A stretch of DNA of 64,000 nt from Escherichia phage ETEC-TG, in the sequence record OR786310.1. One strand, given 5' to 3'. Positions 3,120-23,609 of this stretch are shown here, one piece after another (position 1 is the first letter of the stretch; each line of letters opens with the position of its first letter). A program made the translations under genes and the position numbers. Below the pieces are notes generated by a model. It saw nothing but the letters and a program-made list of their open reading frames with translations, did no database searches and had not been told where the DNA came from.

Positions 3120-5995
3120 TGTCAAGAGTTAAGCACAATATTGACAACACGTTTCAGTTGATTGAAGGGTTGGTTCAGTTTTTGGAAAGAAATACTGGTC
3201 TTACCATAGATCCTACGGTTCAGCACTACATTATCAACCCACAAAACGTATTGGCGAACAACAGACACTTTATTAACTGGACAGCGCAGGAAGGGCAACC
3301 AAACGGTGACGCTACTACCGAAGGTCAATCTGTGCTTATCACTGGTTTTGCTTATGCATATTTGGCTACAGGAGATAAAAAATATCTTGAATCTGCCGAG
3401 AAGTATTGGCAAGCCTATATAGATCACTTCTTCGGGGGCCAACCTATTCCTGATCCTCCAGCTAAGTATCGTCCCAACTGGATCATCAATGGTAAAGAAC
3501 CACGTTTAGCACACTACCCTCTCACAGATGATGGGTATCCTACGCACGGTGGGTTCAAAGGTAGCATGATGACTTGGATTAACGGAAGGACTGTTATTCC
3601 TAAAGGTGCGCCACATTGGGGAGAATACTTAGATAAAGCTTGGTTTGCTTTCAATGGTAATCTTGGTTGGAACTCTGTTAACGCAACAGTGTATGCAACT
3701 AACCCAGATGGTTCAACCAACTGGAAAGAATATGGAGATCAGTGGGACGTTGAATGGATTATAGATCGTCTAGGACGTAAAGTTGATTGGGATGGTAACA
3801 TTTTATCCACTGGGCATAGCTTTGCAGAATATGGAACAGTGCAACTTAAAAACGCTTCTGTGAACGGAGACTATAAATTCAACTACGCTACATGCAATCC
3901 TGTAGAACACGGTGGATATCTGCTTAAGCGTAATGAGATGTGGCATAACCGTCCTGTAAACGTTCCGGTAGAGTTAGGTTATCAAGACAATGCTTCCGAT
4001 GCTGAAACGTGGTGGTGTGATGCAAACTACTTGATGTATCAGATCACAGGAGAGAGAAAATACTGGCTTTGCTGGCAATCTTCTTTATTGTTGTGTCAAG
4101 ACTACTCAAACATCGATATGTTTGATAAATTCTTCCGTAGATCTACGACAGCAATAATTCCTTTTACAGATGGTATCTCGTATGATTACTCATACCCATC
4201 TACAGCAATACCTAAATATTCTCGTGACGAGTTAGGATACACAGTAATTCGCCAAGATGTTGCAGCACAAACAACTCTAGAACAACAGGCAGTTTGGTTC
4301 AGAGTGGATCAGAATTCAAAACTGCGTATTGAGTTTCAAGGCGTAGATGATGCAGGGGAAGGTGTTCTTTTCCGTCCAGAGTTAGAATTAAGCAAGACTA
4401 AGAGTGAAACAGACACAGTGACATATCGTTGTGGCTTACCTCTTGGTGCAGCTAATATGACTAAGATGGATATACCTTTATCCAGTTTTATGCGCACTGA
4501 ACCTCCTGGAGGTGGTGTATATATTATTGCTGAACCTAGAATCATTGTTGACTGGGGAAGCAATACTGTGATACAATATAAATATGCAACTGGTATTGCT
4601 GGGACAAATAGTGATCAGATAGTTTCTGCTAATATGGATTCAGATGGTGGTTTTACTATTGGGTTTTGGTTAACACCAACTAAAACAACCAATTTAAAAT
4701 CTATTACGTATCGTTCATACGCAGATGATTTTAACATCACTATTACGGATTCCGCAGGTTGGAGATGGTGGGCCATGTTAGAAAAAACAAATTCTGCATG
4801 GGTTACTAAAGCTTTAAGTCCTGCTGATTTCAAATTAAGTACTTGGCAACCTAATCACAATGACACAGAGACAAAACCTTCGTCAATAAACCTGACTGCT
4901 GTTGATCAGATGAACATTGCATTGGATTCTGAACCTGCAAATGGCTTGACAGGGGCAATCGACTTTTATTGCGTTAACGATATCCCATCTTTGTATTCTT
5001 CAGCCGCTGGTGATGATTACACAATGTATTTCAGGGTTACAGTTTCATCTGAAAATCCTTATACAGCAAAACTTGGAGATTGTACAATACTGGACTACAA
5101 ACTTGACAGTTTGAATTATACTCCAGGAATCATCCCATTTTCCAATATTAGTGATCCTAATACAGCATTATATGACGGTTGGCGTGGTATTCCTTACCCA
5201 GGTTATCAATACCCATCCTTATATTGTTTTAAAGGGAGAGATATTGACTGGGTTCGTATGAACAACAGTATAGACTTTTTATATGATTCACAAATGTGGT
5301 TTTATAATAAGTTTGCCCCTGTAATGCCTGGGCCAATGGCACAAGCTTATGTTTGGGATCGTTGGGATGCTCATAAATATGGAAACAAAAATGAGTTCAC
5401 AATGTATCATTGGAACGATAAAGCTTGGGATGGTTATGAAGCAAGAGCATTCTTCTGTGCGTGTCATACGGTATACGAACTAAAGCGACGAGGAGCCGAA
5501 GTTCCTGAAAAACTTTTAACAGTTTGTAAAAACTGGATCAACTACCTGAAGTGGTTCCAAGATAACAACGAAGGAAGAACACCAACAATATTTTATCCCA
5601 ACGGAGAAGTGGCTGCGCCTGTAGATGACTTTACAAGTCACATGTCTGCGCTCTTTATGGCGGGATGTGCTATAATGGGGATGGCTGGATATGATTCAGA
5701 AATTCCTAACATTAGAATAGTAGCAGATCGCTGTTTTGAACTTATTCAGGAAAACTATATTGTTCTTGGTCCTAATCACGTCATGAATGGTTGTTGGAGT
5801 GCTGCTCCTAGACCAGACAGTGATAACGGAGTCTTCTTTGGCTTCCACGCTGGAGAGTTGTTACGTGGTTTTGGGTTGTATGCTTTATACAAAAAACTTA
5901 ATCCCCAAAATGCATTACCTGTTTTGGATTCGAGCAATATTCCTGCACTTACTGTTTTGACAATGGCAAACATTAGTGTGGACGTTACCGAGTAA
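3119..5995 (+). CDS. Large structural protein, putative tail fibre / receptor-binding protein
   Basis: 958 aa ORF in baseplate/fibre module; Trp/Tyr-rich composition; function inferred from context. Confidence 0.45.
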   Translation: MSRVKHNIDNTFQLIEGLVQFLERNTGLTIDPTVQHYIINPQNVLANNRHFINWTAQEGQPNGDATTEGQSVLITGFAYAYLATGDKKYLESAEKYWQAYIDHFFGGQPIPDPPAKYRPNWIINGKEPRLAHYPLTDDGYPTHGGFKGSMMTWINGRTVIPKGAPHWGEYLDKAWFAFNGNLGWNSVNATVYATNPDGSTNWKEYGDQWDVEWIIDRLGRKVDWDGNILSTGHSFAEYGTVQLKNASVNGDYKFNYATCNPVEHGGYLLKRNEMWHNRPVNVPVELGYQDNASDAETWWCDANYLMYQITGERKYWLCWQSSLLLCQDYSNIDMFDKFFRRSTTAIIPFTDGISYDYSYPSTAIPKYSRDELGYTVIRQDVAAQTTLEQQAVWFRVDQNSKLRIEFQGVDDAGEGVLFRPELELSKTKSETDTVTYRCGLPLGAANMTKMDIPLSSFMRTEPPGGGVYIIAEPRIIVDWGSNTVIQYKYATGIAGTNSDQIVSANMDSDGGFTIGFWLTPTKTTNLKSITYRSYADDFNITITDSAGWRWWAMLEKTNSAWVTKALSPADFKLSTWQPNHNDTETKPSSINLTAVDQMNIALDSEPANGLTGAIDFYCVNDIPSLYSSAAGDDYTMYFRVTVSSENPYTAKLGDCTILDYKLDSLNYTPGIIPFSNISDPNTALYDGWRGIPYPGYQYPSLYCFKGRDIDWVRMNNSIDFLYDSQMWFYNKFAPVMPGPMAQAYVWDRWDAHKYGNKNEFTMYHWNDKAWDGYEARAFFCACHTVYELKRRGAEVPEKLLTVCKNWINYLKWFQDNNEGRTPTIFYPNGEVAAPVDDFTSHMSALFMAGCAIMGMAGYDSEIPNIRIVADRCFELIQENYIVLGPNHVMNGCWSAAPRPDSDNGVFFGFHAGELLRGFGLYALYKKLNPQNALPVLDSSNIPALTVLTMANISVDVTE

Positions 5996-6003
5996 GGGGT
6001 AAA

Positions 6004-8157
6004 ATGAAACAAGCTATATTTACTGTCACGCGAGACAAGAGAGTAAATGCGAGTTCATTTAACTACACGACTGTTGACGGAACAGCAGTCGCTGGTAGAG
6101 ATTATATTGCAAAATCGGGAACACTTGTGTTCCCTGATGATGCTGATTCTGCTACTATTGTGGTTGAAGTATTTGAACGACCAAAGAACTCAATAGATCT
6201 TAACTTCTCCCTCCAAGTTTCAGGGATTAGTCAAAATAACATGATGGTTGAAACAACCATCAATTGTATTATAACTACTATCCAAGAAAATACTACTCCA
6301 ATAACTTGGACTACAAAAGACGTTAAAATGTTCTCTCCTATGTATTGGACAATAGATTCTCAAGCAACGGAAAGTTGTTCTATTGTATCTCATGGAGACT
6401 CTTTTACTGCAAGATTTGTAAACAGAACAACAGCAGGTTTGGCAGGGGTTATCTGGAGCACAGTTGACAAATATGACCATAAAGGTGTTGGGTATTTGCC
6501 TCACACAGATTTAAGTTCAGAGAAACTTTGGTTTAAAATGGAAATTAGTCAAAACATGCCAGGTTTTAAAGAAGAACCTTTGGTGCCGACTTTGACTGTA
6601 ACTCTCCTGGATAAAAGTGTTCATTATGTCAGTTTAGGATTCTACGCTTCAGATATTTCAGAAGATGGTAAAACAGCCACAATAAAGTTAGATTTTGGTA
6701 ATATCTTTTCTGGCCCTAATAATGATATTCCTTTGGATATGAGTGCTGTAGATAATATTTTCTTCTCTTTGATTACAGCAAGGTATGAAAAAATAGAAGA
6801 GGTTGTACCTATTGACAGTCAAGAGGCTTGGTTTACTTTCACTCTTCTTGAACCTACTTCTGGTTACAGTATGATGAAAGTCAGCAACCTTGTCCAGCCT
6901 GAACATGATATTCGCATGTGCACATCTTATGATGATATGTATAACCTGACTCCAGAGAGAGTTATTTATAATACATATGCACTAGGTTATCGTGGAATGA
7001 TTAACCATTACAACGGAATGTCTCACTATTATGAGTTCTCATGGAACGGAACATCTTGGGCTTTAAATAGATCTGTTTTCCTGAATCCGGCTACAGAAGC
7101 TTGGCTAAATAGTTTCCATTCTATAGCAAACGAGAAGGGCTACACGATAATGAACTCTTTAAGTTTTGAATTGATGAGCACAGTTTGTCCTGTAGAATGG
7201 GTCCAGCATGATTGGAACGATGCTCTTGCAGCAACAGGGTATGAACCTCCTAGTTATGTGTTGTCTCCAACTATTGACGAAGGTATGGAATATTTGCAAA
7301 ATGTTATTAACAAAATAGCATCTATTTCGCAAGCTAATAATATTCCAGTTGTCATTCAAATTGGTGAGCCTTGGTGGTGGTATAATACAGCAAGTAAAAT
7401 GCCTTGCATATATGATTACACTACCAAACTGGCATTCAACACAGAAACAGGCTTATTTGCACAAGATGCAGGAACAATAGATAATTATAAAACAGGAACA
7501 CCGTTTGACGAATACTATGCATTTTTGTCTCGTAAACTAGGGTTAAGAGTTACAAAGTTTGCAACAGACACTAGAGCAACTTATCCAGGAGCTAAAGTAA
7601 CATTGCTGCCATTCTTACCATCAATTATCGGCAATGGTTTAATGGAGAAAGTTAACTTTCCGTCTGATTACTACATTCCTGAAGCTTTTGATTTTTATTG
7701 TTCAGAGTGTTACGACTGGCTTCTGGAAGGTAAAATGATGAAAGCATTTGATGCAATTACCATACCACATGAAAAATTAGGTTTTGAATATTCTGATATT
7801 CACTATCTTGCAGGTTTTGTTCCAGATGCTACTCTTGCACCTTTGTATGGCTTTGATCCTGAATCAAACTACCGCACGTATCTTTGGAAAATGATTATAG
7901 GTAACATAGTGTTGAACGCCAATAAGTTCAATGGACTTACACAATATATATGGGCCTATCCTCAAATAATGCACGATTCTATCACGGTAGTTAATTCTCA
8001 ATCCCAAGTTTTCTATATGGGTAACGTGCCTTTGAACGCTTATTTACAGGATATCACTCTTAAACAGGTAAATGTTGAGATTGCCACCATAAGTGGAATT
8101 ACATTAGCCACTAAATCTGGAGAAGATTTAGTAACAACACAAAAATTTTATATATAG
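6004..8157 (+). CDS. Structural protein with N-terminal Calx-beta-like domain
   Basis: N-terminus FTVTRDKRVNASSFNYTTVDGTAVAGRDYIAKSGTLVFPDDADSATIVVEVFE matches the Calx-beta consensus (T.DGTA.AG.DY...G.L.F); 717 aa. Confidence 0.5.
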   Translation: MKQAIFTVTRDKRVNASSFNYTTVDGTAVAGRDYIAKSGTLVFPDDADSATIVVEVFERPKNSIDLNFSLQVSGISQNNMMVETTINCIITTIQENTTPITWTTKDVKMFSPMYWTIDSQATESCSIVSHGDSFTARFVNRTTAGLAGVIWSTVDKYDHKGVGYLPHTDLSSEKLWFKMEISQNMPGFKEEPLVPTLTVTLLDKSVHYVSLGFYASDISEDGKTATIKLDFGNIFSGPNNDIPLDMSAVDNIFFSLITARYEKIEEVVPIDSQEAWFTFTLLEPTSGYSMMKVSNLVQPEHDIRMCTSYDDMYNLTPERVIYNTYALGYRGMINHYNGMSHYYEFSWNGTSWALNRSVFLNPATEAWLNSFHSIANEKGYTIMNSLSFELMSTVCPVEWVQHDWNDALAATGYEPPSYVLSPTIDEGMEYLQNVINKIASISQANNIPVVIQIGEPWWWYNTASKMPCIYDYTTKLAFNTETGLFAQDAGTIDNYKTGTPFDEYYAFLSRKLGLRVTKFATDTRATYPGAKVTLLPFLPSIIGNGLMEKVNFPSDYYIPEAFDFYCSECYDWLLEGKMMKAFDAITIPHEKLGFEYSDIHYLAGFVPDATLAPLYGFDPESNYRTYLWKMIIGNIVLNANKFNGLTQYIWAYPQIMHDSITVVNSQSQVFYMGNVPLNAYLQDITLKQVNVEIATISGITLATKSGEDLVTTQKFYI

Positions 8158-8165
8158 GAGTAAAA

Positions 8166-10418
8166 ATGTCAACTACAATTACTAATTTACCCGAAACATC
8201 AAAAGTTAATGGTTCTGATTACCTGGTTTTAGACCAACCTGATAAGACTGTTAAAAGCACAGTTTCCAACTTTCTTACTGACACTGGGGTGGTTTTAGCC
8301 ACCCAGTTGAAAGATACAGATGGAGCTACCAAGTATCCAGAACTTCAGATTGCACGCTGGCGAGACGAGGGAGATATCAGAGGGTGGGGCACGGAAACAA
8401 ACGGTGATGTTACCGAAGCAATCATTGAGGCGGTAGCGGCGACAAGCGGCACTATCATTGTGCCACCTGGTGACTATGTTGCCACACCTACGCTGGCCGA
8501 AGTTCCGGCTGTGCTGAAATTGCTGTCCCGCGCTGATTTTCGTGGCAGGTTGACCATTAATCTGCCAGCTGGGACGGTCAATCTGAACGAGCAGACAGTC
8601 ATAAATTCTAACAGGAGTAATCTGTGCAAGGTCATTGGCGTAGCGCTAAACACGAGCGTTACAGGGCTTGTTTCTGTAGCTGGGTCAAGCAAGCAATATT
8701 CGATAACTCTGTCCCTGGCAGATGCCTCGCAGGTGTCAGTCGGTGACTATGCCATCTTCAGGCACGATCTGACGGGAACTGGTTTTTTCCACATACACTG
8801 CGGGGGCTGGCGGGTAACGGCTGTGTCCGGCAATAACGTGACCGTGCTCAACACATGCGTCTTGGATTCATTCCCTTCGTCAACCGTTACCGGTGGATCA
8901 GTCTCCATTATCAAGTCCGTTCTGAAATACACCGGCTGTGATGGGATTAGACCGGAGGGCGGCGACTGTATCGGAATTATTGATAATGTCGCCATCGTGG
9001 GTGATTACAACCTTGCTACCGGCGCAGGGACAATCGGTGCTCACGGCGTAATATCCTCAACACCCGTAGTAGTCACCGACGCCGCCAACGCATCCAACAA
9101 CGTAGCGAATATGGCGGCAGCGCTGGCCCTGGGACGAAATATTGCAATCAGTGCCTGGGGTGAGCAAGGGCTGGCAGTGTCGGGTCGCTCTGCGCTTGTG
9201 TGTAACTTCATCGCATCCTGTGCCAACCGTAAGCGTGGTATTTATGCGGAAGGTGCTCATATACGCGGGAAATTTATGATCGCCTCCGGAAACGGAGAGG
9301 ACGGCATTATTTCAGATACCACTGGATTTGTGCAGGCTGCATATGCCGTTTGCTCGGGTAACGGATTAAACGGGTTCTGGTCAACAAACCTCTCTCTTAT
9401 TGCGGCGGCAAGGGGAGTGGCTTGCTGTAACAAAACAAATGGTGTGGAGGCAAGGGGGCAGACAAGGCTCGCATTTGATCTCGGCCTTTCCTACGGAAAC
9501 GTTCTAAACGGTGTCAGCGCCTCTGATGGGGGCATGATTGACTTTGATGGCGGCATGTCAAGAGACAATCTCGTTGACGGGATCGCAGCGACATACAATG
9601 CAGTAGTTGACGCGAACAACGCCTCCAGTACCACCAATGGTCGTTACGGTACTAACGTGACCTCCGCGTGCATTATCATTTCAGGGACTGGTACTATATC
9701 TGGGAATACAGGGGCGGATGTTCGTGATAACGGCAATGGGATGGTTGTCCGACCAGACGGCACGATCTACCCATTCACTGGGGTCGCACAGGGTAATCTG
9801 TCGCTAAGAAACACCGTCAGCGGCGCGGGGGTTGACATTGTTCCTACAAGTATAGGTGACTTAATTCTGAGCTTTAAAAACTCAGCAGGCGGAACGCTTA
9901 ACCCGTTATACAACTTCAAAGCCGACGGTACTCAGTACCCTCAAAATGACGCGACGCAAAGCCTTGGGCGTGCCGCTAACCGATACAATGTCGGTTTCTT
10001 CGCTGGCGGAACACAGTCAACTTCAGATGCCACACTTAAAGACCCTATCCGGGAGTTCAATCAGGCCGAACTTAATGCAGCAATGCGAATCGCAAAAATG
10101 CTGGGTTTCTGGACATGGCTGGATGATGCCGGAAAACGGCTTCATGCAGGGACAACAGTGCAAGCGGTACTGGAGGTGCTGGAAGAAGAGGGACTCGACT
10201 GGCGTAACTATGGTTTCATCGGATTTGATGAGTGGGATGATGAATATATCCCAGTAACCATTGAGGTAGATGGCGAAGTCGTTGAAACAGGGGAAACGAA
10301 ATTAGTGCGTGAGGCTGGTTCTGTCTGGCAACTGCGCGATCAGGAATTTGACCGTTTCGTTATGCGTGGACTTTCTGAAAGGCTGAGTATTATAGAAAGT
10401 AAGCTGGATTTACTGTAA
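8166..10418 (+). CDS. Tailspike protein with beta-helix-like receptor-binding domain (GC-rich, mosaic)
   Basis: 750 aa; AT-rich conserved N-terminus followed by a markedly GC-richer body with Gly/Asn/Ser/Thr-rich repeats typical of pectate-lyase-type beta-helices. Confidence 0.55.
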   Translation: MSTTITNLPETSKVNGSDYLVLDQPDKTVKSTVSNFLTDTGVVLATQLKDTDGATKYPELQIARWRDEGDIRGWGTETNGDVTEAIIEAVAATSGTIIVPPGDYVATPTLAEVPAVLKLLSRADFRGRLTINLPAGTVNLNEQTVINSNRSNLCKVIGVALNTSVTGLVSVAGSSKQYSITLSLADASQVSVGDYAIFRHDLTGTGFFHIHCGGWRVTAVSGNNVTVLNTCVLDSFPSSTVTGGSVSIIKSVLKYTGCDGIRPEGGDCIGIIDNVAIVGDYNLATGAGTIGAHGVISSTPVVVTDAANASNNVANMAAALALGRNIAISAWGEQGLAVSGRSALVCNFIASCANRKRGIYAEGAHIRGKFMIASGNGEDGIISDTTGFVQAAYAVCSGNGLNGFWSTNLSLIAAARGVACCNKTNGVEARGQTRLAFDLGLSYGNVLNGVSASDGGMIDFDGGMSRDNLVDGIAATYNAVVDANNASSTTNGRYGTNVTSACIIISGTGTISGNTGADVRDNGNGMVVRPDGTIYPFTGVAQGNLSLRNTVSGAGVDIVPTSIGDLILSFKNSAGGTLNPLYNFKADGTQYPQNDATQSLGRAANRYNVGFFAGGTQSTSDATLKDPIREFNQAELNAAMRIAKMLGFWTWLDDAGKRLHAGTTVQAVLEVLEEEGLDWRNYGFIGFDEWDDEYIPVTIEVDGEVVETGETKLVREAGSVWQLRDQEFDRFVMRGLSERLSIIESKLDLL

Positions 10419-14811: not shown

Positions 14812-17800
14812 ATGGCAACATTCCCAACATATCCAGCAACGTCTCTCGAACAGGGCGTAGACCTGGTTATTTTCTCATCTAACCAACTCCATGATGTTAT
14901 TAATGGAAGTGCTACAGAGAGTATTGAAACAGAATCAGGGTTGATACCAACCCTGAGAAAAGCCCTTGTTGACAACTTTTTCTTTAAAAGCCCATTGGAT
15001 TGGGCGCAAGGCACAAACGAAACAGTTTTTAACCAACTTCGTTATTTCCAGAATGGAGTATTGAGCGGTTATTACTATGCTCCTAACGCTACATTGGTTA
15101 ACCCAATCCCTATGCAAGGGACTCCAGTAGGAGATAACAACTGGGTATTGTGGGGACTGAAAACAGAACAATTAGCAACAGAAGTCACCCCGTGGGTATA
15201 CTCTGGTGCAACTGGTTATGAAACAGTAATTAGTCCTCCTTACATCTTTGATAGTGCTATTGTTACGATCAATGGTGTTATTCAGGTTCTGGGGGAAGCT
15301 TTCCGTATAGAAGACAGTAAGATCATCTTATCTGAACCTTTGGGACACGATCCTGCAACAGGACTGCCAAACAAGCTTTTTGCTTATATTGGTAAAATCG
15401 TAGCTTCAGCAGATACAGATCCTAATCTAGAGAACCGTCTTGTTAGTTTAGAAACAAAAACGGAAGAACTAACAGAAAGCATGGATAAAGTCCCTCTGCA
15501 AGCTATTGCTCGTAAGTATGGTTTGTTAGATGATGAGGTGGCTTACGCAACAGCAGGTCAATCGTTAACAGGGATTAAAGCTCTGTATGATCCGGTAGCA
15601 CAGTCTTCCTACACATTACCTCCTAACATCACAGGAACTTTAACATCCTTATCTGTTTCTGGAGTAATGACTTATTCTGGAGGATCTGTAGACCTTTCTG
15701 CACTGGCTGTTGAGCGTGGACAGTTTGTTCATTTGCCTACAAGCTTTGGTAATAACGTAACTCTGACAGCTAAAAATCAGACGATTGGACGTGGTGCTGG
15801 TCGTTATCGTTGGGCTGGAAGTTTACCAAAAAGTATTTTGGCCTCTGATACATTGGAGACAAGCGGAGGATTAGGTCCAAATGCATGGGTTCTGACTAAT
15901 ACAGAAGGACTGTTAACCCCTCGTGGTGGAACATACAACGATCTATTCGATGTTGTCTACTTGTCAGAATTTGCTAACAATACAACTACCTATACCACAC
16001 CAGAAGCAGCTTTCCAGGCGGCACTGTTAGCAGCAAAAGCTTCGAAAAGCAAGATTCTCGATGCTTACGGTTGCGACATGACTTTCACGACAAGCTCTTT
16101 TGATATTCAAGATATCACTTTGCGTGGTGGTGTGTTCCGTGGTCAACGCGACTATCGTGTGCAGAATGCTACAGTAGAAGGCACAACTTTCCGTAACTCT
16201 CGTGTTATGTATTGGGGTGGTGCTGTGCGCATGTTCGATTGTTTGTGGGACGGTGCTCCTCGCGCAGGTCAAGTTGGTAGCTTGGTATTCCAAGGCAACC
16301 CAATATCAGGTACTTTTGAAATTGATAATTGTACTTTTAAAAACGGGTTATATGGCATTCTTCAACAAGGAACAGGGGAACCAGTAACACGCGGTGTCTT
16401 CCGTAACCTTACCTTCATGGACATGCAAGGTGATGCAATAGAACTGAACGTCATCAATAAACATTATGACGATGGTTGTGTGATTGAGAATATTTACCTG
16501 TCTAATATCGATGGGACTAACGCTCCTATTCCTCTGTCCAACTGGGGTATCGGTATCGGTGTAGCTGGTAAAGGACCATATGGTTACGGAATCCCTGATG
16601 ATCAATATTGTAAGAACATTACAATTCGTAACGTTTTTGCAAAACGTTGTCGTCAGATTGTCCACGTAGAAGTTGGTCGTAATATCTCTATCGAAAACAT
16701 TCATGGCGATCCAGATCAAACCGTATCTGTTGGGACAGGTTTGGCAACTGGCGCAGTTGTAATGTATGGAAGTAAAGACTTTACGATTGATGGTGTTTAT
16801 GGAGAGCCTAAAACAGACGGTAGCACACTTGCAAGTAATATCCGTATGATTTACTTGGAGTGGGGAACTAACGCAGTTCTGGATGAAGAGGGTAATCCGG
16901 TAGTTCCGGCACAAGGCAGACCTTCAAACCCATGCTTTAACTATTCTGTTCGTAACATTCACACCAAAACTGGGCGTGTTTTTGCGGGAGTTTCCGCTGG
17001 GCCAGGTTATGAAAACAGAGTTAGCTTTGAAAATATTCGTTGCGCTGCCTTGCAGTTGTTCGGTATAGCTTCTTGGCTTTCAATGTCTAACATCACCTGT
17101 AATATCTTCGATTGTGTTGGTCAACCTGAATCTGGTCCAGGGACATTTTATGATGGATTCTTCCGTAGAGAAAAATCTGTTCTTGAAATGGTTAACGTAA
17201 ACTGTTACCCAGATGGCAAGACGATGGTTACTGGTCGTCCACAGTGGAGCCGTTGCCGTTACTCGGATATTCATCGTGTCAACTGTAATGTTGAAGCTAA
17301 TATGTATACCAATATCGCAGGTGGTATTGGAGCTATTGTAGGGACAACGGGCAAAGTTTATTACTTAGAGCCTAATCCTAGTCGAAACATTGATGGAATG
17401 CATTTCCCAACAGGGAAAGAGTTTGACAAAGGGGATATGATAGTCAAGGCGGATAATACGTTCTTCCTTGTAACAACAAGTGGGGCATATATTCCAGATA
17501 TCCCAGCTTTCGGTATTCGAGCTACACAGGCAGGAGATACCTTCCTGACACAGAACTTGACTCCTAACGGGACAGCAACAAATGCTTCTTGGTTGTATCA
17601 TTACCCTCTGTCAGCAGGGACACGTATCCGTATTCCTGGCGCTGGTGTAGGTGGAGCAGATTTGGACACAGTTATTACTCGTGCACCTTATCAAGATAAT
17701 GATACGTGGACTAACCCAGTTAAAATAGACATTGCAGATCCAATTGTAACGCCTACAAGTGCTGGAGTTAGAATTAAAACCATACCTAATGATTCCAGTA

Positions 17801-17865
17801 ATGTTTCTGTAGGTAATACTGCGGTTATTCGCCCAACGCCAGTAGTAGATGTGCCAACAACCTAA
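14812..17865 (+). CDS. Tailspike protein (second, beta-helix-type; putative depolymerase)
   Basis: 1017 aa; elevated GC; repetitive Gly/Asn-rich body; many overlapping antisense ORFs typical of GC-rich insert. Confidence 0.5.
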   Translation: MATFPTYPATSLEQGVDLVIFSSNQLHDVINGSATESIETESGLIPTLRKALVDNFFFKSPLDWAQGTNETVFNQLRYFQNGVLSGYYYAPNATLVNPIPMQGTPVGDNNWVLWGLKTEQLATEVTPWVYSGATGYETVISPPYIFDSAIVTINGVIQVLGEAFRIEDSKIILSEPLGHDPATGLPNKLFAYIGKIVASADTDPNLENRLVSLETKTEELTESMDKVPLQAIARKYGLLDDEVAYATAGQSLTGIKALYDPVAQSSYTLPPNITGTLTSLSVSGVMTYSGGSVDLSALAVERGQFVHLPTSFGNNVTLTAKNQTIGRGAGRYRWAGSLPKSILASDTLETSGGLGPNAWVLTNTEGLLTPRGGTYNDLFDVVYLSEFANNTTTYTTPEAAFQAALLAAKASKSKILDAYGCDMTFTTSSFDIQDITLRGGVFRGQRDYRVQNATVEGTTFRNSRVMYWGGAVRMFDCLWDGAPRAGQVGSLVFQGNPISGTFEIDNCTFKNGLYGILQQGTGEPVTRGVFRNLTFMDMQGDAIELNVINKHYDDGCVIENIYLSNIDGTNAPIPLSNWGIGIGVAGKGPYGYGIPDDQYCKNITIRNVFAKRCRQIVHVEVGRNISIENIHGDPDQTVSVGTGLATGAVVMYGSKDFTIDGVYGEPKTDGSTLASNIRMIYLEWGTNAVLDEEGNPVVPAQGRPSNPCFNYSVRNIHTKTGRVFAGVSAGPGYENRVSFENIRCAALQLFGIASWLSMSNITCNIFDCVGQPESGPGTFYDGFFRREKSVLEMVNVNCYPDGKTMVTGRPQWSRCRYSDIHRVNCNVEANMYTNIAGGIGAIVGTTGKVYYLEPNPSRNIDGMHFPTGKEFDKGDMIVKADNTFFLVTTSGAYIPDIPAFGIRATQAGDTFLTQNLTPNGTATNASWLYHYPLSAGTRIRIPGAGVGGADLDTVITRAPYQDNDTWTNPVKIDIADPIVTPTSAGVRIKTIPNDSSNVSVGNTAVIRPTPVVDVPTT

Positions 17866-17871
17866 TGGAAT

Positions 17872-17890
17872 AGAGGGGGATTCCCCCTCT
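17872..17890 (+). terminator. Stem-loop AGAGGGGGA-TT-CCCCCTCT after tailspike gene
   Basis: Perfect 8-bp G/C-rich inverted repeat 7 nt after stop; weak T-tract. Confidence 0.4.
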
Positions 17891-17926
17891 TCTTCCAATA
17901 GAATGGTCTAATGATAGGAGAGATAA

Positions 17927-19951
17927 ATGAATTTAACAAGACCTAATAGTGCGATAGCCGATCTGGTAGAAGCTACTTATCGAAAACGTCGCAGCTTTGA
18001 GGCAGGTTTTACATTACGTAATTCCCGTGAAGTTTTGCTGTTAGCAGCAGAAGGGAATTATTACCAATGGAAAGGAACTTTTCCTAAAGTTGTTCCAGCA
18101 AACTCTACGCCAGCCACCACAGGTGGTATTTCTTCCCTTGCATGGCAAAGTGTTGGGACTGCTGATGATATAGCAATTATCAATGCCAAGTTTACGGCAA
18201 TGCAGCAACAGATTGATGATCTGTCGGAAACAATACCTGAAGCTGGTAAATCGGCTTATCAGATCGCACTTGATAATGGTTTTGTTGGAACAGAAGCACA
18301 ATGGCTTGCTTCTTTGAAAGGGGATACTGGTGCTCAACTTAATATTAAAGGATCATTAGCAAACACTAGTGAACTACCATCCACAGGTAACGTTGCAGGG
18401 GATGGTTATATCGTAGGTGATGTAATCTACGCTTGGGATGGTTCTGTTTGGAAACTTATTTCTTCTCTTGGGCCAGAAGGTAAATCAGCTTACGAGGTAT
18501 GGTTGGCAGATGGTAATACAGGATCTGTTTATGATTTTCTTACCTCTATAAAAGGTGATAAAGGTGATGTTGGTCCTACAGGGCCACAGGGAGCACCTGG
18601 TGTTAACGCCAACGGTTTTGATTATCGTGGGGATTTGCCTTCTACAAGTAACTTACCACAACCAAACTCTGAAAACGTAAGTCAAGCTTATTCTATCAAT
18701 GGTAATCTTTATGTCTCTAATGGGACAGCTTGGGTCAACATGGGTAATATTGTTGGTCCTCAAGGTCCACAAGGTGAGGCAGGTAAAGACGGTCTTGATG
18801 GAACAGATGGAGATGAAGGGAAATCTGCATATCAAAGTTGGCTGGATGCTGGTAATGAAGGGACAGAAGTAGATTTTATTGCCTCACTTAAAGGTCCAAA
18901 AGGAGACAAAGGTGATCAAGGAGAGCGAGGTCCACAAGGTGAACTAGGTCCACAAGGACCAGTGGGTGCAACAGGATCAGGCTTAGATATTATCGGGGTT
19001 CTGAACAGTGAAGCTGAACTTCCTCCTACCGGAGAAGTAGGTGATGCATATAAAATTAATAATGATTTATATGTTTGGGTTCAAGATGCTACGGAATGGA
19101 TGAATGTTGGCAGTCTTGGAGGAACATCAATTACAGCTAAAGGTCATGTTCCGAACAGTGAAGCTCTCCCTGTTTATAATAACTATGGCGATGCCTACTT
19201 AACTGAAGACACTAGTAATCTTTACATCTATACCTACGATCAAGACACCAATTCCGCATCTTTTGTTGACATGGGAAGTATTAAAGGCGACAAAGGTGAA
19301 AAAGGGGATAAAGGAGATAAGGGTGATCCTGGAACAAACGGAACCAACGGTACTGATGGGACCAACGGTAAGGACGGCGCACAGTGGTTTGTAGCAACAA
19401 CTAATCCAGTTGCAGGAGACGGTGTTATCAATGATTACGCCTTCAATACTACCACTGGAGCAGTGTTTAAGAAAACAGATTCTTCTACGTGGACGCTTAT
19501 AGGCACTCTTCCTAGTATACCAGAAGCCCCTCAAGACGGCTTGACGTATGGTCGGTCTGATGGAAACTGGATCGAAATATCAGGATCAGATCCTACGGAA
19601 GCTATAACACCAACTAGAGTTACAGCAGGTTTCATGGAACTTGAAACAACTGCTGCCAACTCTGGAGCATCTTGGACTCCTTCTGGAACTTCCAATATGT
19701 ATGTTGTTACAGTAACTGATGCTCTGACAGTTGGAGCATGGCCTGGTGTCACTGGCTCTACAAAACCTAAAGCGTTTTCAGCAATGATTTATTTGATTCA
19801 AGATACAACGGGACACACGGTTACACTAGATGCGTCTTATGGAGCACTAAATGATACAGAAATAGCAACTGCTGCTAACGCAGTAACAATTTTGCAATTA
19901 ACGTATCCTGGTGTGGGTGATATCGTGGACATGGTTGTTGTAACACGATAA
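17927..19951 (+). CDS. Tail fibre protein with collagen-like G-X-Y repeats
   Basis: 674 aa; several G-X-Y runs (GPQGPQGEAGKDGLDGTDGDEG; GDKGEKGDKGDKGDPGTNGTNGTDGTNGKDG) alternating with two recurring sequence modules. Confidence 0.6.
   Translation: MNLTRPNSAIADLVEATYRKRRSFEAGFTLRNSREVLLLAAEGNYYQWKGTFPKVVPANSTPATTGGISSLAWQSVGTADDIAIINAKFTAMQQQIDDLSETIPEAGKSAYQIALDNGFVGTEAQWLASLKGDTGAQLNIKGSLANTSELPSTGNVAGDGYIVGDVIYAWDGSVWKLISSLGPEGKSAYEVWLADGNTGSVYDFLTSIKGDKGDVGPTGPQGAPGVNANGFDYRGDLPSTSNLPQPNSENVSQAYSINGNLYVSNGTAWVNMGNIVGPQGPQGEAGKDGLDGTDGDEGKSAYQSWLDAGNEGTEVDFIASLKGPKGDKGDQGERGPQGELGPQGPVGATGSGLDIIGVLNSEAELPPTGEVGDAYKINNDLYVWVQDATEWMNVGSLGGTSITAKGHVPNSEALPVYNNYGDAYLTEDTSNLYIYTYDQDTNSASFVDMGSIKGDKGEKGDKGDKGDPGTNGTNGTDGTNGKDGAQWFVATTNPVAGDGVINDYAFNTTTGAVFKKTDSSTWTLIGTLPSIPEAPQDGLTYGRSDGNWIEISGSDPTEAITPTRVTAGFMELETTAANSGASWTPSGTSNMYVVTVTDALTVGAWPGVTGSTKPKAFSAMIYLIQDTTGHTVTLDASYGALNDTEIATAANAVTILQLTYPGVGDIVDMVVVTR
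19285..19378 (+). repeat. Triplet-periodic GGN-NNN-NNN coding repeat (collagen-like tract)
   Basis: ggcgacaaaggtgaaaaaggggataaaggagataagggtgatcctggaacaaacggaaccaacggt... Confidence 0.6.
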
Positions 19952-19955
19952 CAGA

Positions 19956-19979
19956 AGCCCCGAAAGGGGCTTTCTTTTT
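19956..19979 (+). terminator. Rho-independent terminator (GCCCC-GAAA-GGGGC + T-tract)
   Basis: Hairpin with GAAA tetraloop followed by TTTCTTTTT directly after stop of fibre gene. Confidence 0.7.
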
Positions 19980-19992
19980 ATGGAGGGTTTAA

Positions 19993-22665
19993 ATGTTTCC
20001 AATTCCAATATTTACTATTATGACCAGCACTGGTGTCGTTCCTCTGCCAGCGGGTATTGTTAAAAAAGTAATCACTTTAGATTACCCAGATAATGCTGGT
20101 AATTCTAACAGCAGTTTAGCAATTTTGCTTAATGATGGTAGATTGTTTACTCAAGGCGCAAACCTTTTTGGTGAGATTGCAGATGGAACTCGTAGTGCAC
20201 GATTCAATAATTTCCACTTAGCTTCTACTGTAGTAGCGGATGTGTTTACCGCAGATCGTTGTTTTGTTATTAAAACTAACAGCGGGGGATGGCAATATTC
20301 AGGATTGACAGCAGGGTTGGTAGGATCTATAGCAGCAGGTGGTACGGATGCATGTGTAACTACTTGGACCAGCTTTCCATCTGTAATAACAGGGACTATC
20401 TCTTTAGCCAATCTTAAAGAGGTTAAAGGAGGGTATAACAATACTCTTTGGTTAATGAATAGCGGTGTTCTTTATGGATCGGGTCAAAACACAGTAGGCA
20501 GTTTAGGTGCAAGCACTACTAACGAAGTTTCTACTCCCCGTCAGATAACAAGTTCAGCAGTTGCTTTTGATGCAGGTTATAACCAATGCTCTTATGTCAA
20601 CAATGCGGGAACCTTGCGTGTTTGTGGAGCTAGTAAAGGTTTAGCAGGTAATAATAACACAACAACCGCTTTTGTCAATGCCACGATATCCACTACTGAA
20701 ACAGTGTATGTCAAAGATTACATCAATACAGTTTCCCAGACAATAGTTGTAGGAGATACCTCCGGTGGCGCGGGTACAGTAAACTACTTATATGTTAGAT
20801 CTAATACAGAAACAACCTACACTAAACTGGACACCTTTGCAGCAGGTTTCTCAACATGGAAATTTCCACCAAGCCGCCACTCTTTTTTCGTTGGGATCAA
20901 TAATTCCTTGTGGGCTATTGGTAAGAACTACACTGCAAACTTAGGTTTGGGATATGATTCTGCGAGCGGAGATCCACTCCAAGTGGGAAAACCAGTTAAA
21001 CCTGAAGGAGTGGGTTCCTGGGATATAAACAAGCTCACAAGCGTTCATACGTTGAATATGGATATTACTAACCAATTAGGTTATCAAGGAACCTTTTTCG
21101 TTTATAACGGGGATATGTATTATTCCGGTATTTGGAAAGATGGGAAAGCCTCGTATCTGTTCAATAGTGGTCTAAACTATAATAAATTCACACCAATAGC
21201 AAGCTCCGTGATTACGGGGGATGTTCTGGCAACTGGCTTAACTACAGATTCTTTAGGAATTTGTATTGTAGGTGGAACTAAACAGTTGACACATTCTGTT
21301 AGCCCGGAAGGAGGTAAACTTTTCAATATTAAATACACTTCTTCTGTCCCTGCAAACATGACAATATCATCTACTGGTTTAATGACTTTCCATGCAGAAG
21401 GTGGTTTTGATGCAGGTATGACAGCCTTAAACGCTGAAGGAACAACTTTATCAGATACCTCTGGAGGATATGCTTCAACATTGAGTGTTTACACCCCTAG
21501 CTTATCTGCGATGGATGTAGGAACAACACAAACAATGGTAGCAGAAATAACGCCAACAGGAGCAGCAAGCTTACCTGGTATGGTTGTTGAGTATACAACT
21601 ACAGATCCTAATGTTGCTACAGTAGATCCTACAACTGGTGTAATAACTGGTGTTGGTGATGGTGGTTGTAGAATTGGTTGCACAGCTACATATCAAGGTG
21701 TTGTTACCGCTTCTGATAGTTCTTATTTAACGGTGAACGCTGTTGCGGGAAAGGAGTTAGCTCCATCTCCGAGTAGTAGTTTAACGGTTCTAAACGGATA
21801 TTTCAACCACTCGGCAGATGGGGCAATTACGTTCCCAATTTTATCGGGTACTGTCACACCAGCTAACTTTGTAGTTAAGGTGGATGACGTTGTAATACCT
21901 TCAAATAAAGTAATATTTAGAAATAAAGCTTTCTCTACAGTGGATAGTTATCCAGCAGGAGAATATAGACTGGCTATTGAATTTGCAAGTGCTTCAGTAG
22001 TGAATAGTGTTGATGTGTCTATGGAAGCAAATCCAGATCTTTTAGAATTATGGGGCGGCAACAGAATTGGTTATTCTACAAGCCCAGCCTCACAATTCTT
22101 AAAAGGTTGTGCTAACTTAAGACGAATAACTTCTGATTGTTTTAGTAACACATCTTACACCGGAACATCTATAAGTGGTATCTTCTCTGGCTGTACAAGT
22201 TTGACAGCTATCCCTGAAGGATTATTCAGTGATGCTTTATTTCCTTCAATGACAACAATGTCAAGCACGTTTGAAGGTTGTACATCTTTAACATCTATTC
22301 CTTCAGATTTATTTAAAAATCTATCAAAAGTTACAAGATATTCTTACACCTTTAAAGATTGCACCTCTCTTGCAGAAGTTCCAGCAGGAATGTTTGATAA
22401 TATTCCAACGAAAGTGACCTCTTTAACAGCTACATTCCAAGGTTGTTTAGCACTTACAGATTTTAATAAAATCTTTAATGACAACCCAGGGTTAACTGTT
22501 TGTGGTAAACGTGGAGCATTATCTTCTTTCTTTAGTGGATGCACAAATCTTACAGGAACAGGAACAACATTAACAAATACATTAGGCGGAGTAGCTAATA
22601 GTTACCTATTCAGGTATTGCACAAAACTTTCTGATTATAACAATATTCCTTCGGGTTATAAATAA
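19993..22665 (+). CDS. Receptor-binding/tail fibre protein with Big_2-like Ig domain and C-terminal BspA-type leucine-rich repeats
   Basis: 890 aa; Ig-like segment (VATVDPTTGVITGVGDGGCRIGCTATYQGVVTASDSSYLTVNA); C-terminal repeats FSGCTSLTAIPEGLF / FEGCTSLTSIPSDLF / FKDCTSLAEVPAGMF / FQGCLALTDF / FSGCTNLTG. Confidence 0.55.
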   Translation: MFPIPIFTIMTSTGVVPLPAGIVKKVITLDYPDNAGNSNSSLAILLNDGRLFTQGANLFGEIADGTRSARFNNFHLASTVVADVFTADRCFVIKTNSGGWQYSGLTAGLVGSIAAGGTDACVTTWTSFPSVITGTISLANLKEVKGGYNNTLWLMNSGVLYGSGQNTVGSLGASTTNEVSTPRQITSSAVAFDAGYNQCSYVNNAGTLRVCGASKGLAGNNNTTTAFVNATISTTETVYVKDYINTVSQTIVVGDTSGGAGTVNYLYVRSNTETTYTKLDTFAAGFSTWKFPPSRHSFFVGINNSLWAIGKNYTANLGLGYDSASGDPLQVGKPVKPEGVGSWDINKLTSVHTLNMDITNQLGYQGTFFVYNGDMYYSGIWKDGKASYLFNSGLNYNKFTPIASSVITGDVLATGLTTDSLGICIVGGTKQLTHSVSPEGGKLFNIKYTSSVPANMTISSTGLMTFHAEGGFDAGMTALNAEGTTLSDTSGGYASTLSVYTPSLSAMDVGTTQTMVAEITPTGAASLPGMVVEYTTTDPNVATVDPTTGVITGVGDGGCRIGCTATYQGVVTASDSSYLTVNAVAGKELAPSPSSSLTVLNGYFNHSADGAITFPILSGTVTPANFVVKVDDVVIPSNKVIFRNKAFSTVDSYPAGEYRLAIEFASASVVNSVDVSMEANPDLLELWGGNRIGYSTSPASQFLKGCANLRRITSDCFSNTSYTGTSISGIFSGCTSLTAIPEGLFSDALFPSMTTMSSTFEGCTSLTSIPSDLFKNLSKVTRYSYTFKDCTSLAEVPAGMFDNIPTKVTSLTATFQGCLALTDFNKIFNDNPGLTVCGKRGALSSFFSGCTNLTGTGTTLTNTLGGVANSYLFRYCTKLSDYNNIPSGYK

Positions 22666-22670
22666 GAAAA

Positions 22671-22694
22671 GGAGCCATTTGGCTCCTTTCTTTT
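22671..22694. terminator. Bidirectional terminator between convergent operons (GGAGCC-ATTT-GGCTCC flanked by A/T tracts)
   Basis: Perfect 6-bp stem with T-tract on plus strand and A-tract upstream; lies in 56-bp convergent gap. Confidence 0.65.
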
Positions 22695-22721
22695 ATAAAA
22701 ACTCTTTATAGATCAATAAGA

Positions 22722-23609
22722 TCAGAATGGAATATCATCATCGAAGTCCATTGGAGGTTCTTCTTGATTACTTGGAGTTGGTTCTGGTTGTGGTTCAGGT
22801 TTTTTAACTTCTTTCTTCTCTTCTTTCTTAGGTTGTTCTGCGGAACCACGAATGGCAGCAGCAACTTTATCAGACAAAGCTAGAACTTTACGAGCAGAGT
22901 CAATCAAATCTTCTACAGATACAGTCTTAATGGTATGGTCTTTACAAGCATTGAGGATAGCGTGACCAACAGATGCCCCAAGATCATAATCATTAATGTC
23001 AACGCCACGAGATTCAGCAATTTCCGATTTCAGCGTGACAGTTGCAGATTGAACAACCCCAGCGATATCGAAAGCATCACCTTTAACACCATTACGAATC
23101 AGTTCCAGTGCACCATTTACTGCGTGACCAGTTTCCAGACCTACAGTATCACGTTTTTTATAGGACTGCTTAGGAGCAGCATCGTTGGAACCTTTATTGC
23201 CAGAAGATTTGTTAGACTTCTGAACACCATCGGTAGACAATACTGTAATACGAGATTTTTTAGTATTGTAGTAAGTTTTACCGCCTTTATTATCAACGCG
23301 ATCAATATCAATACTTACTTCTACACCTTTTTCAATAGTGATCCAATTATCACCTTCTTTGACTTGCAGGTTTTCATAACCTTCTTTCAGTTCAATGTCA
23401 CCAAGAGAAATCCAAACACCTTTCTCATCTGGTTTAGCACCTTTCTCTTTCAGAACAAGAGAAGCTCGGTGAGTTGAAACAATCGTTTTTCCTTCCCAAT
23501 GAAAAGTTTTAGGTTCAGCGAATTTATCCAGTTTAACGTAGTCTACGATACCAGTTGCATAAGTTACGGTTTTGCCTTTACGATCAGTTTCAGTATTAAT
23601 TACGGACAT
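22722..23609 (-). CDS. Single-stranded DNA-binding protein (phage gp2.5-like) carrying host SSB C-terminal tip
   Basis: 295 aa; Lys-rich middle, Pro/Glu linker, C-terminal EPPMDFDDDIPF identical to the E. coli SSB acidic tip; GAGGAG RBS. Confidence 0.55.
   Translation of the reverse strand: MSVINTETDRKGKTVTYATGIVDYVKLDKFAEPKTFHWEGKTIVSTHRASLVLKEKGAKPDEKGVWISLGDIELKEGYENLQVKEGDNWITIEKGVEVSIDIDRVDNKGGKTYYNTKKSRITVLSTDGVQKSNKSSGNKGSNDAAPKQSYKKRDTVGLETGHAVNGALELIRNGVKGDAFDIAGVVQSATVTLKSEIAESRGVDINDYDLGASVGHAILNACKDHTIKTVSVEDLIDSARKVLALSDKVAAAIRGSAEQPKKEEKKEVKKPEPQPEPTPSNQEEPPMDFDDDIPF

Follow-up and report, generated by a model that had tools for sequence, protein, structure and literature searches.

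Within a 64,000-nucleotide stretch of Escherichia phage ETEC-TG (OR786310.1; hereafter, the window), we analyzed the open reading frame (ORF) at 19993..22665 on the + strand, which encodes a 97-kDa tail protein of 890 amino acids (aa). A first-pass annotation, made from the letters alone, had delimited this ORF, and the ORF list gives exactly the same boundaries and an ATG start. The region comes from a Phapecoctavirus, that is, a phAPEC8-like myovirus of the subfamily Stephanstirmvirinae, and the gene has been named TfpM1 (PMC12695924). It shares 99.9% DNA identity with Escherichia phage dw-ec and is 95-99% identical in most other matching phage records; at least 80% of it is covered by 33 phage records, nearly all of them Phapecoctavirus. 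The protein matches PHROG 11922, "tail protein," over its full length. Both this membership and its place in a tail module mark it as a tail protein, although such family names are annotations and not tested functions.

An unbroken + strand block of tail, baseplate, and fiber genes ends with TfpM1. Upstream, the block encodes large tail proteins, a baseplate wedge, a baseplate protein, a short fiber with its assembly protein, a colanic-acid-degrading tailspike (colanidase), and a 674-aa fiber. The fiber ORF (17927-19951, +) combines a Tail_spike_N domain (TSP1/gp66; E 1.3e-19) with collagen-like Gly-X-Y repeats, and a terminator-like hairpin at its 3′ side (19954-19973, +; consensus scan) separates it from TfpM1. 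The TfpM1 ribosome-binding site, GGAGGG, can be read directly at 19982-19987 (+); like the hairpin, it is a consensus match only. The consensus scan found no + strand promoter-like site at the gene. Downstream, the replication genes lie on the opposite strand, and an SSB-like gene (22722-23609, −) converges on TfpM1. The gap between the two (22666-22721) holds nothing but a bidirectional, intrinsic-terminator-like hairpin at 22667..22690 (both strands; consensus scan). In phage Mt1B1_P17, the corresponding gap holds a 135-aa endonuclease gene (L001, 14701-15108); that gene is absent here.

To describe the protein, we used two AlphaFold2 models, covering aa 1-590 and aa 585-890, each computed from its own curated alignment (A4 and A5). 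A third alignment (A3), which pooled full-length orthologues with short leucine-rich repeat (LRR) proteins, was set aside because it forced non-homologous parts together. The N-terminal model (predicted local distance difference test [pLDDT], 89.5) opens with an RCC1-like seven-bladed beta-propeller at aa ~7-400 (20011..21192, +), recognized by an RCC1 repeat match as well as by its fold. The sequence identity between this propeller and the RCC1-like propellers of UVR8, RPGR (RCC1-like domain, RLD), HERC2 (RLD), and BLIP-II is only 13-17%. In contrast to them, it lies at the N-terminus of a phage tail protein, with no sign of nucleotide-exchange or photoreceptor function. It is the conserved scaffold of the protein and probably the part that docks to the virion. 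Next come two tandem immunoglobulin (Ig)-like domains of the Big_2 type, at aa ~410-496 and ~498-584 (21220..21744, +). Both the model, which shows an Ig-like beta-sandwich fold, and Pfam identify them: Big_2 (PF02368) scores above its gathering threshold with two stretches, which bears out the Big_2-like segment of the first-pass annotation.

The N-terminal part has relatives beyond the Phapecoctavirus tail proteins. The first ~190 aa are 39-41% identical to the N-terminus of an rV5-like gp027 (1,878 aa, an Ig-like "cell wall surface anchor"; L089, 4001-8621). Among the Vequintavirus N-terminal homologues, some records read "structural protein with Ig domain," and those of the BASEL collection read "lateral tail fiber protein with intimin domain." These similarities suggest, at the sequence level, an N-terminal module common to Vequintavirinae and Stephanstirmvirinae. 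Neither AlphaFold2 model contains a coiled coil, beta-helix, collagen, triple beta-spiral, or other fiber-forming or trimerization domain, and there is no Pfam match of fiber type. The first-pass annotation had called the protein a fiber; this name is doubtful given the missing fibrous domain and an N-terminal 45% occupied by the propeller, which that annotation overlooked. No enzymatic domain was detected in the 890-aa protein. We found no description in the literature of a propeller-Ig-LRR architecture or of an RCC1 domain in the TfpM1 protein.

The C-terminal model (aa 585-890; pLDDT, 90.5; predicted template modeling score, 0.87) begins with a small beta-sandwich of ~90 residues at aa ~598-686 (21784..22050, +; strands in residues 14-102 of the model, pLDDT ~90). 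It stands between the Ig domains and the repeats, which it caps. Both by hhalign and in A1, a 15-sequence family alignment, it aligns with the pre-LRR sandwich of DUF285 cassettes, and the version found in relatives is of the "DWGDG" type. Beyond it lies an LRR solenoid (22099..22662, +) of 7 repeats of 26-32 aa with the pattern F.GC.sLt.iP..lF....vT...., closed by a C-terminal cap (CTKLSDYNNIPSGYK). The F..C..L core occurs six times in register (aa 731, 760, 787, 815, 847, and 873), and an offset copy, FLKGCANL from aa 702, brings the total to 7 units, spaced 28, 29, 27, 28, 32, and 26 residues apart. The repetition is seen in the protein sequence only; the cassette DNA has no repeats of note. 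The first-pass annotation had counted at least five repeats of F.GCTSLT.IP..LF in the C-terminal third of the protein. In its strict form this motif matches only twice (aa 731 and 760), but the count holds for degenerate forms, with five copies of the first half (F.[GD]C[TLA][SNAK]L[TAR]) and three of the second ((I/V)P..(L/M)F). As to location, "C-terminal third" describes the module of aa 585-890 as a whole, while the repeats themselves (aa 703-890; 22099-22662) fill the last 21%, after the beta-sandwich.

How should this LRR be classified? Its repeats have the tandem hydrophobic pattern of 20-30-residue units that defines the LRR superfamily. Their predicted fold is a curved solenoid to which each repeat contributes one short beta-strand, and it resembles solved LRR proteins; structure prediction, which had been proposed as a check, thus came out in favor of a solenoid. 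Against solved structures, the A1 profile matches LRRTM (E 3e-18) as well as variable lymphocyte receptors, repebodies, and the Bacteroides LRR_5 proteins 4fs7 and 4gt6, and the query sequence alone matches a designed LRR protein (E 6e-6). The Pfam families are another matter. LRR_5 (PF13306; gathering score, 27.7 bits) has no match to the whole protein or to aa 690-890 even at E ≤10, so that of the two families proposed for a hidden Markov model check, only Big_2 is recovered with the query itself. The best direct matches are both sub-threshold: DUF285 (PF03382), at 13.3-16.8 bits (E 0.006; cutoff, 25 bits), and the PARCEL model TIGR02167, at 17.4 bits (E 0.0027; cutoff, 30 bits).

The relatives place the query more clearly. 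We scanned 47 sequences, comprising the query module and 46 homologues of 25-43% identity; LRR_5 was matched by 36 of the 47 (E ≤0.01) and DUF285 by 20. The ten closest relatives lie at the threshold of both families, with LRR_5 scores of only 21-32 bits. In a profile-profile comparison, the cassette family (A1) aligns with the DUF285 cassettes of orthologous tail proteins over 182 columns (hhalign probability, 97.6%; E 4e-12). The 27-residue family consensus, CF.GCTSLTSIP.GLF.NN..VT.F.., has a BspA-like first half and a DUF285-like second half. Because the relatives, the family profile, and the profile-profile comparison agree in placing the query despite its sub-threshold scores, we file the LRR, by sequence comparison, in the BspA(LRR_5)/DUF285 superfamily; it is not a textbook member of either Pfam family. 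The BspA-like label given in the first pass therefore stands for the superfamily but not for the family.

TfpM1 differs from both families. BspA-type repeats, also called TpLRR, have a period of ~23 residues. Compared with such proteins (PF13306; for example, Bacteroides ovatus BACOVA_04585, which is 4fs7, and 4gt6), TfpM1 has longer repeats of 26-32 residues, and the second half of its repeat (NVT.F..CF) resembles DUF285. BspA-type proteins are long cell-surface arrays, whereas TfpM1 has only 7 repeats, carried on a phage tail protein. The likeness to DUF285/PARCEL extends to position, since canonical DUF285 cassettes fill the same slot in orthologous tail proteins. However, the DUF285 signature, F.ga.sFNQdis.Wd, differs from the first half of the TfpM1 repeat, F.GCTSLTSIP.GLF. 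DUF285/BspA-family proteins are also annotated in jumbo phages, e.g., Vibrio phage pir03. The LRR type is abundant, with 14,415 cluster representatives at E ≤1e-3 in a library of 1.84 billion proteins, the top ones being giant multi-repeat proteins.

The C-terminal module is an exchangeable cassette (21744..22686, +) that encodes aa 585-890 and runs through the stop codon into the terminator stem, most of which it includes. Its limits are clearest by blastn of phage ESCO13 against the window: the two are 97.4% identical over the upstream 4.7 kb (from 17001 to 21743), show no similarity over 21744-22686, and are 99% identical from 22687 onward. The left boundary thus coincides with the end of the second Ig domain, and the right boundary falls within the terminator stem. 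The GC content of the cassette is 0.363, versus 0.394 for the window. A full-length search found proteins that retain the first ~585 residues at 97% conservation but end in ~300 residues of unrelated sequence. At least five C-terminal states occur on this one scaffold: the TfpM1 LRR, a module ending in "GLKYYD," a P0066-type module, a "DWGDG" sandwich followed by canonical DUF285 (PF03382 at E 6.7e-39), and no module at all, in orthologues of 565-573 aa. The ESCO13-type and P0066-type modules have zero Pfam matches. Close relatives therefore share a conserved N-terminus and differ in an exchangeable C-terminal domain.

The cassette also moves independently of its scaffold. In Wecvirus-like orthologues, the scaffold is 76-85% identical while the cassette is 90-91% identical, which indicates that the cassette moved between lineages after the scaffolds had diverged. 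It is a self-contained, horizontally exchangeable module. The scaffold is present at ≥95% identity in 64 phage records and the LRR cassette in 32, with 3 more at 90-95%, so the LRR allele occurs in about half of the sequenced Phapecoctavirus records, both counts being inflated by RefSeq/GenBank duplicates. Among cultured phages more broadly, 56 of 50,697 records match the module, of which 35 are Phapecoctavirus-type and 21 are others at ~32-35% identity. The first-pass view that such repeats are uncommon in enterobacterial phage fibers is accurate for cultured phages at large but not for this genus, or for the slot itself, which holds DUF285 elsewhere.

Outside the genus, the module appears on unrelated tail proteins. 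In Klebsiella P2-like Reipivirus phages, the P2-type baseplate protein I (1,008 aa, "tail protein I") has it as a C-terminal fusion, and in Synechococcus phage S-CBWM1, it lies within a "putative tail protein." The other matching phages are a Butyrivibrio virus and jumbo phages whose deposited names refer to Erwinia, Serratia, and Klebsiella. Metagenomes add stand-alone proteins (270-350 aa) that share both the repeats and the C-terminal cap, in several phage settings: next to a Phage_tail_C gene on a 97.9-kb crAss-like contig, a sheath gene on a 192-kb T4-like contig, and a lysozyme gene on a 104-kb phage-like contig.

Bacteria encode many relatives as well. A pattern built from a 4-sequence repeat alignment (A6) was searched against bacterial genomes and metagenome-assembled genomes (MAGs), which encode relatives in 326 of the first 600 matches. 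Most of these come from gut, rumen, and oral anaerobes, namely, Bacteroidales, Alistipes, Tannerellaceae, Treponema socranskii, Clostridia, and, as judged by record labels only, "Candidatus Enterousia" and Alphaproteobacteria MAGs. Many are proteins of 500-3,600 aa with a signal-peptide or lipoprotein start and 8-38 repeats. The first-pass annotation had pointed to surface proteins of gut and oral anaerobes, and such relatives are indeed abundant. Phage and bacterial members share the C-cap CTxLSDYxxIPxxWK followed by a stop. Its carriers include L012, L013, L022, L023, L024, L036, and P0001/2/5/10/12/13/19, with a few extra residues before the stop in P0010 and P0013; the bacterial ones belong to Bacteroidales, Victivallales, and gut Alphaproteobacteria, and several are large surface lipoproteins. 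Some LRR-module relatives, among them P0013 and the L010 ORF at 4870-6627, have a type-IV-pilin-like N-terminus (GITLIALVVT..IL.ILA..) and appear from their sequences to be bacterial pseudopilin-LRR fusions.

The link between the module and surface proteins of gut anaerobes is real at the level of sequence. The first-pass annotation went further and suggested that the repeats had been borrowed from a bacterial adhesin, which the data do not sustain. Phage and bacterial relatives interleave in the BLAST ranking at 33-41% identity and 90-103 bits; since they are equally distant, they point to neither a donor nor a direction of transfer. The slightly low GC content hints at a foreign origin of the cassette, but too weakly to indicate a particular source.

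What might such a protein do? We favor, with fair though far from complete confidence, the reading that TfpM1 is a modular, non-fibrous, tail-associated adhesin, in which a conserved scaffold carries an exchangeable ligand-binding tip. TfpM1 would then be one part of the multi-fiber adsorption apparatus of Phapecoctavirus. Its N-terminal two-thirds (the propeller and the two Big_2 domains) would form a scaffold that attaches to the virion and keeps the tip at a distance, with the Big_2 domains acting as a spacer or stalk. The C-terminal third (the beta-sandwich and the 7-repeat LRR) would bind a bacterial cell-surface component, either a glycan or a protein, and this binding would contribute to reversible adsorption and host range. 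The case for a ligand-binding tip is built on the position of the gene, the sharp exchange at a domain border, the distal position that the module also takes in unrelated tail proteins, and the extracellular nature of the bacterial relatives; that these are surface lipoproteins is consistent with an extracellular binding function. The domain architecture, superfamily, cassette boundaries, alternative cassettes, and tail-module context are directly supported, as is the LRR fold in its predicted form. From these we infer virion incorporation, docking through the propeller, binding by the LRR, and the kind of ligand.

The same locus type in the same phage group encodes the modular receptor-binding proteins of the "Swiss army knife" apparatus of phi92, rV5, and phAPEC8-like phages, and TfpM1 resembles these in its sharp recombination boundary at a domain border and in having several alternative C-terminal modules. 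The characterized fibers and spikes of this group are trimeric beta-helical or fibrous proteins, often glycan degrading. Unlike them, TfpM1 is built of propeller, Ig, and LRR domains, with no enzymatic or fibrous domain detected.

Observations on related phages fit the adhesin reading. The TfpM1 and TfpL alleles divide phiWec188/190 from phiWec179/181/186, the two groups differ in host range, and the allele variation is concentrated at the C-terminus (PMC12695924); we find that phiWec188 and phiWec190 carry the LRR allele. However, several points weigh against the adhesin reading, beginning with the fact that this host-range split is confounded by the co-varying TfpL allele (PMC12695924). The presence of TfpM1 in the virion is deduced; its partial homologue gp27 goes unmentioned in the text of the rV5 proteomics work, and papers on an O177 phage and on ST410 yielded nothing about TfpM1. 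The protein has no fibrous or trimerization domain to indicate a mode or site of attachment. The TfpM1 structures are predictions, and the receptors proposed for Phapecoctavirus, enterobacterial common antigen and the lipopolysaccharide core, are hypothesized by analogy only. Finally, LRRs can be pure scaffolds between proteins.

This last point leads to the alternative that the LRR is an internal assembly scaffold for another fiber or tailspike, such that cassette exchange tracks the partner. LRRs are generic protein-protein interaction modules, the locus encodes many fibers, and the Tail_spike_N (TSP1/gp66) domain of the fiber directly upstream is of a kind used in branched tailspike complexes. 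Yet ESCO13 has a wholly different cassette next to upstream DNA that is 97.4% identical over 4.7 kb, including the adjacent fiber gene. The cassette thus changes without a matching change in the nearest candidate partner gene, which argues against a purely internal assembly role. Some orthologues do without the module, and stand-alone homologues of 270-350 aa occur in unrelated phage types. We regard an assembly scaffold as unlikely.

It is also conceivable that the Ig and LRR modules bind animal-host mucosa (mucin glycans or extracellular matrix) and hold the phage in gut mucus, by analogy with BspA-type adhesins and Ig-like phage decoration proteins. The LRR relatives occur chiefly in surface proteins of commensals from the gut, rumen, and mouth, and BspA-like proteins are reported mainly from organisms of mucosal surfaces (PMC2843621). 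The phage-borne relatives likewise include gut-type phages such as the crAss-like ones, and TfpM1 lacks a classical fiber architecture. On the other hand, the gene lies inside a tail-fiber locus and its cassette is swapped in the way of host-range determinants, while the module also occurs on a P2-type baseplate protein and a cyanophage tail protein, where mucosa plays no part. We regard this mucosal reading as quite improbable.

Still less probable is a non-virion product, secreted or intracellular (an effector or an anti-defense protein), encoded at the end of the tail module. TfpM1 shares its strand and tight spacing with the tail genes and shows no + strand promoter-like site in the consensus scan; tail or structural annotations extend to the Vequintavirus proteins homologous over the first ~190 aa, and homologous modules are fused to a baseplate protein. 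That the repeats merely reflect chance or low sequence complexity and do not fold as an LRR can practically be dismissed: the query does fall below the Pfam LRR_5 and DUF285 thresholds, and Foldseek found no significant match in the PDB, but six in-register F..C..L motifs stand against 0.06 expected from the protein composition, and chance was rejected.

Two further observations concern the genome and its relatives. A 750-aa tailspike/fiber ORF at 8166-10418 (+) lies within a 2-kb block with a GC of ~0.50, versus 0.39 for the window, and among the 50,697 phage records, none covers more than 38% of it. Matches are confined to the first ~230 nucleotides, which encode an N-terminal anchor common to many spike genes of Phapecoctavirus, and to some later stretches, the 3′ end among them. 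This ORF looks like a second cassette-type allele of the same locus, and by its sequence, its central part appears to be unique among cultured phages. Near-identical Phapecoctavirus genomes are deposited under the hosts Campylobacter jejuni (B15), Pseudomonas coronafaciens (PsgM04F), and Klebsiella (MG065650.1, OR584014.1, and NC_047994.1); these host labels may be wrong or may reflect contaminated propagation cultures.

Much of what surrounds TfpM1 is already known: dozens of sequenced phages carry the gene, with an annotation, the LRR type is abundant, and cassette exchange in tail proteins is familiar. Nothing in our analysis points to an unusual mechanism. However, our literature search found no description of an LRR as a phage receptor-binding domain or as an exchangeable tip, and we know of no phage receptor-binding domain of LRR fold that has been characterized experimentally. 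It is tempting to go one step beyond the adhesin reading and propose that the LRR cassette truly acts as a distal receptor-binding domain and belongs to a pool of BspA/DUF285 modules moving between surface proteins of gut bacteria and diverse phage tails (crAss-like, T4-like, P2-like, and phAPEC8-like). We offer this proposal tentatively, as a serious possibility that we stop just short of endorsing; a bolder variant would have the LRR bind mucosal ligands of the animal host and not the bacterium. If the proposal holds, the cassette would be, to our knowledge, the first LRR fold shown to be a phage host-range determinant.

Of the coliphages proposed for therapy and biocontrol, Phapecoctaviruses have some of the broadest host ranges. 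TfpM1 is one of their many tail proteins that may set specificity. With its sharply delimited cassette, which is exchanged in nature and has a compact LRR fold amenable to design, the gene is a practical target for host-range engineering. More broadly, TfpM1 ties the tail modules of these phages to the very large BspA/DUF285 family of gut-bacterial surface proteins.

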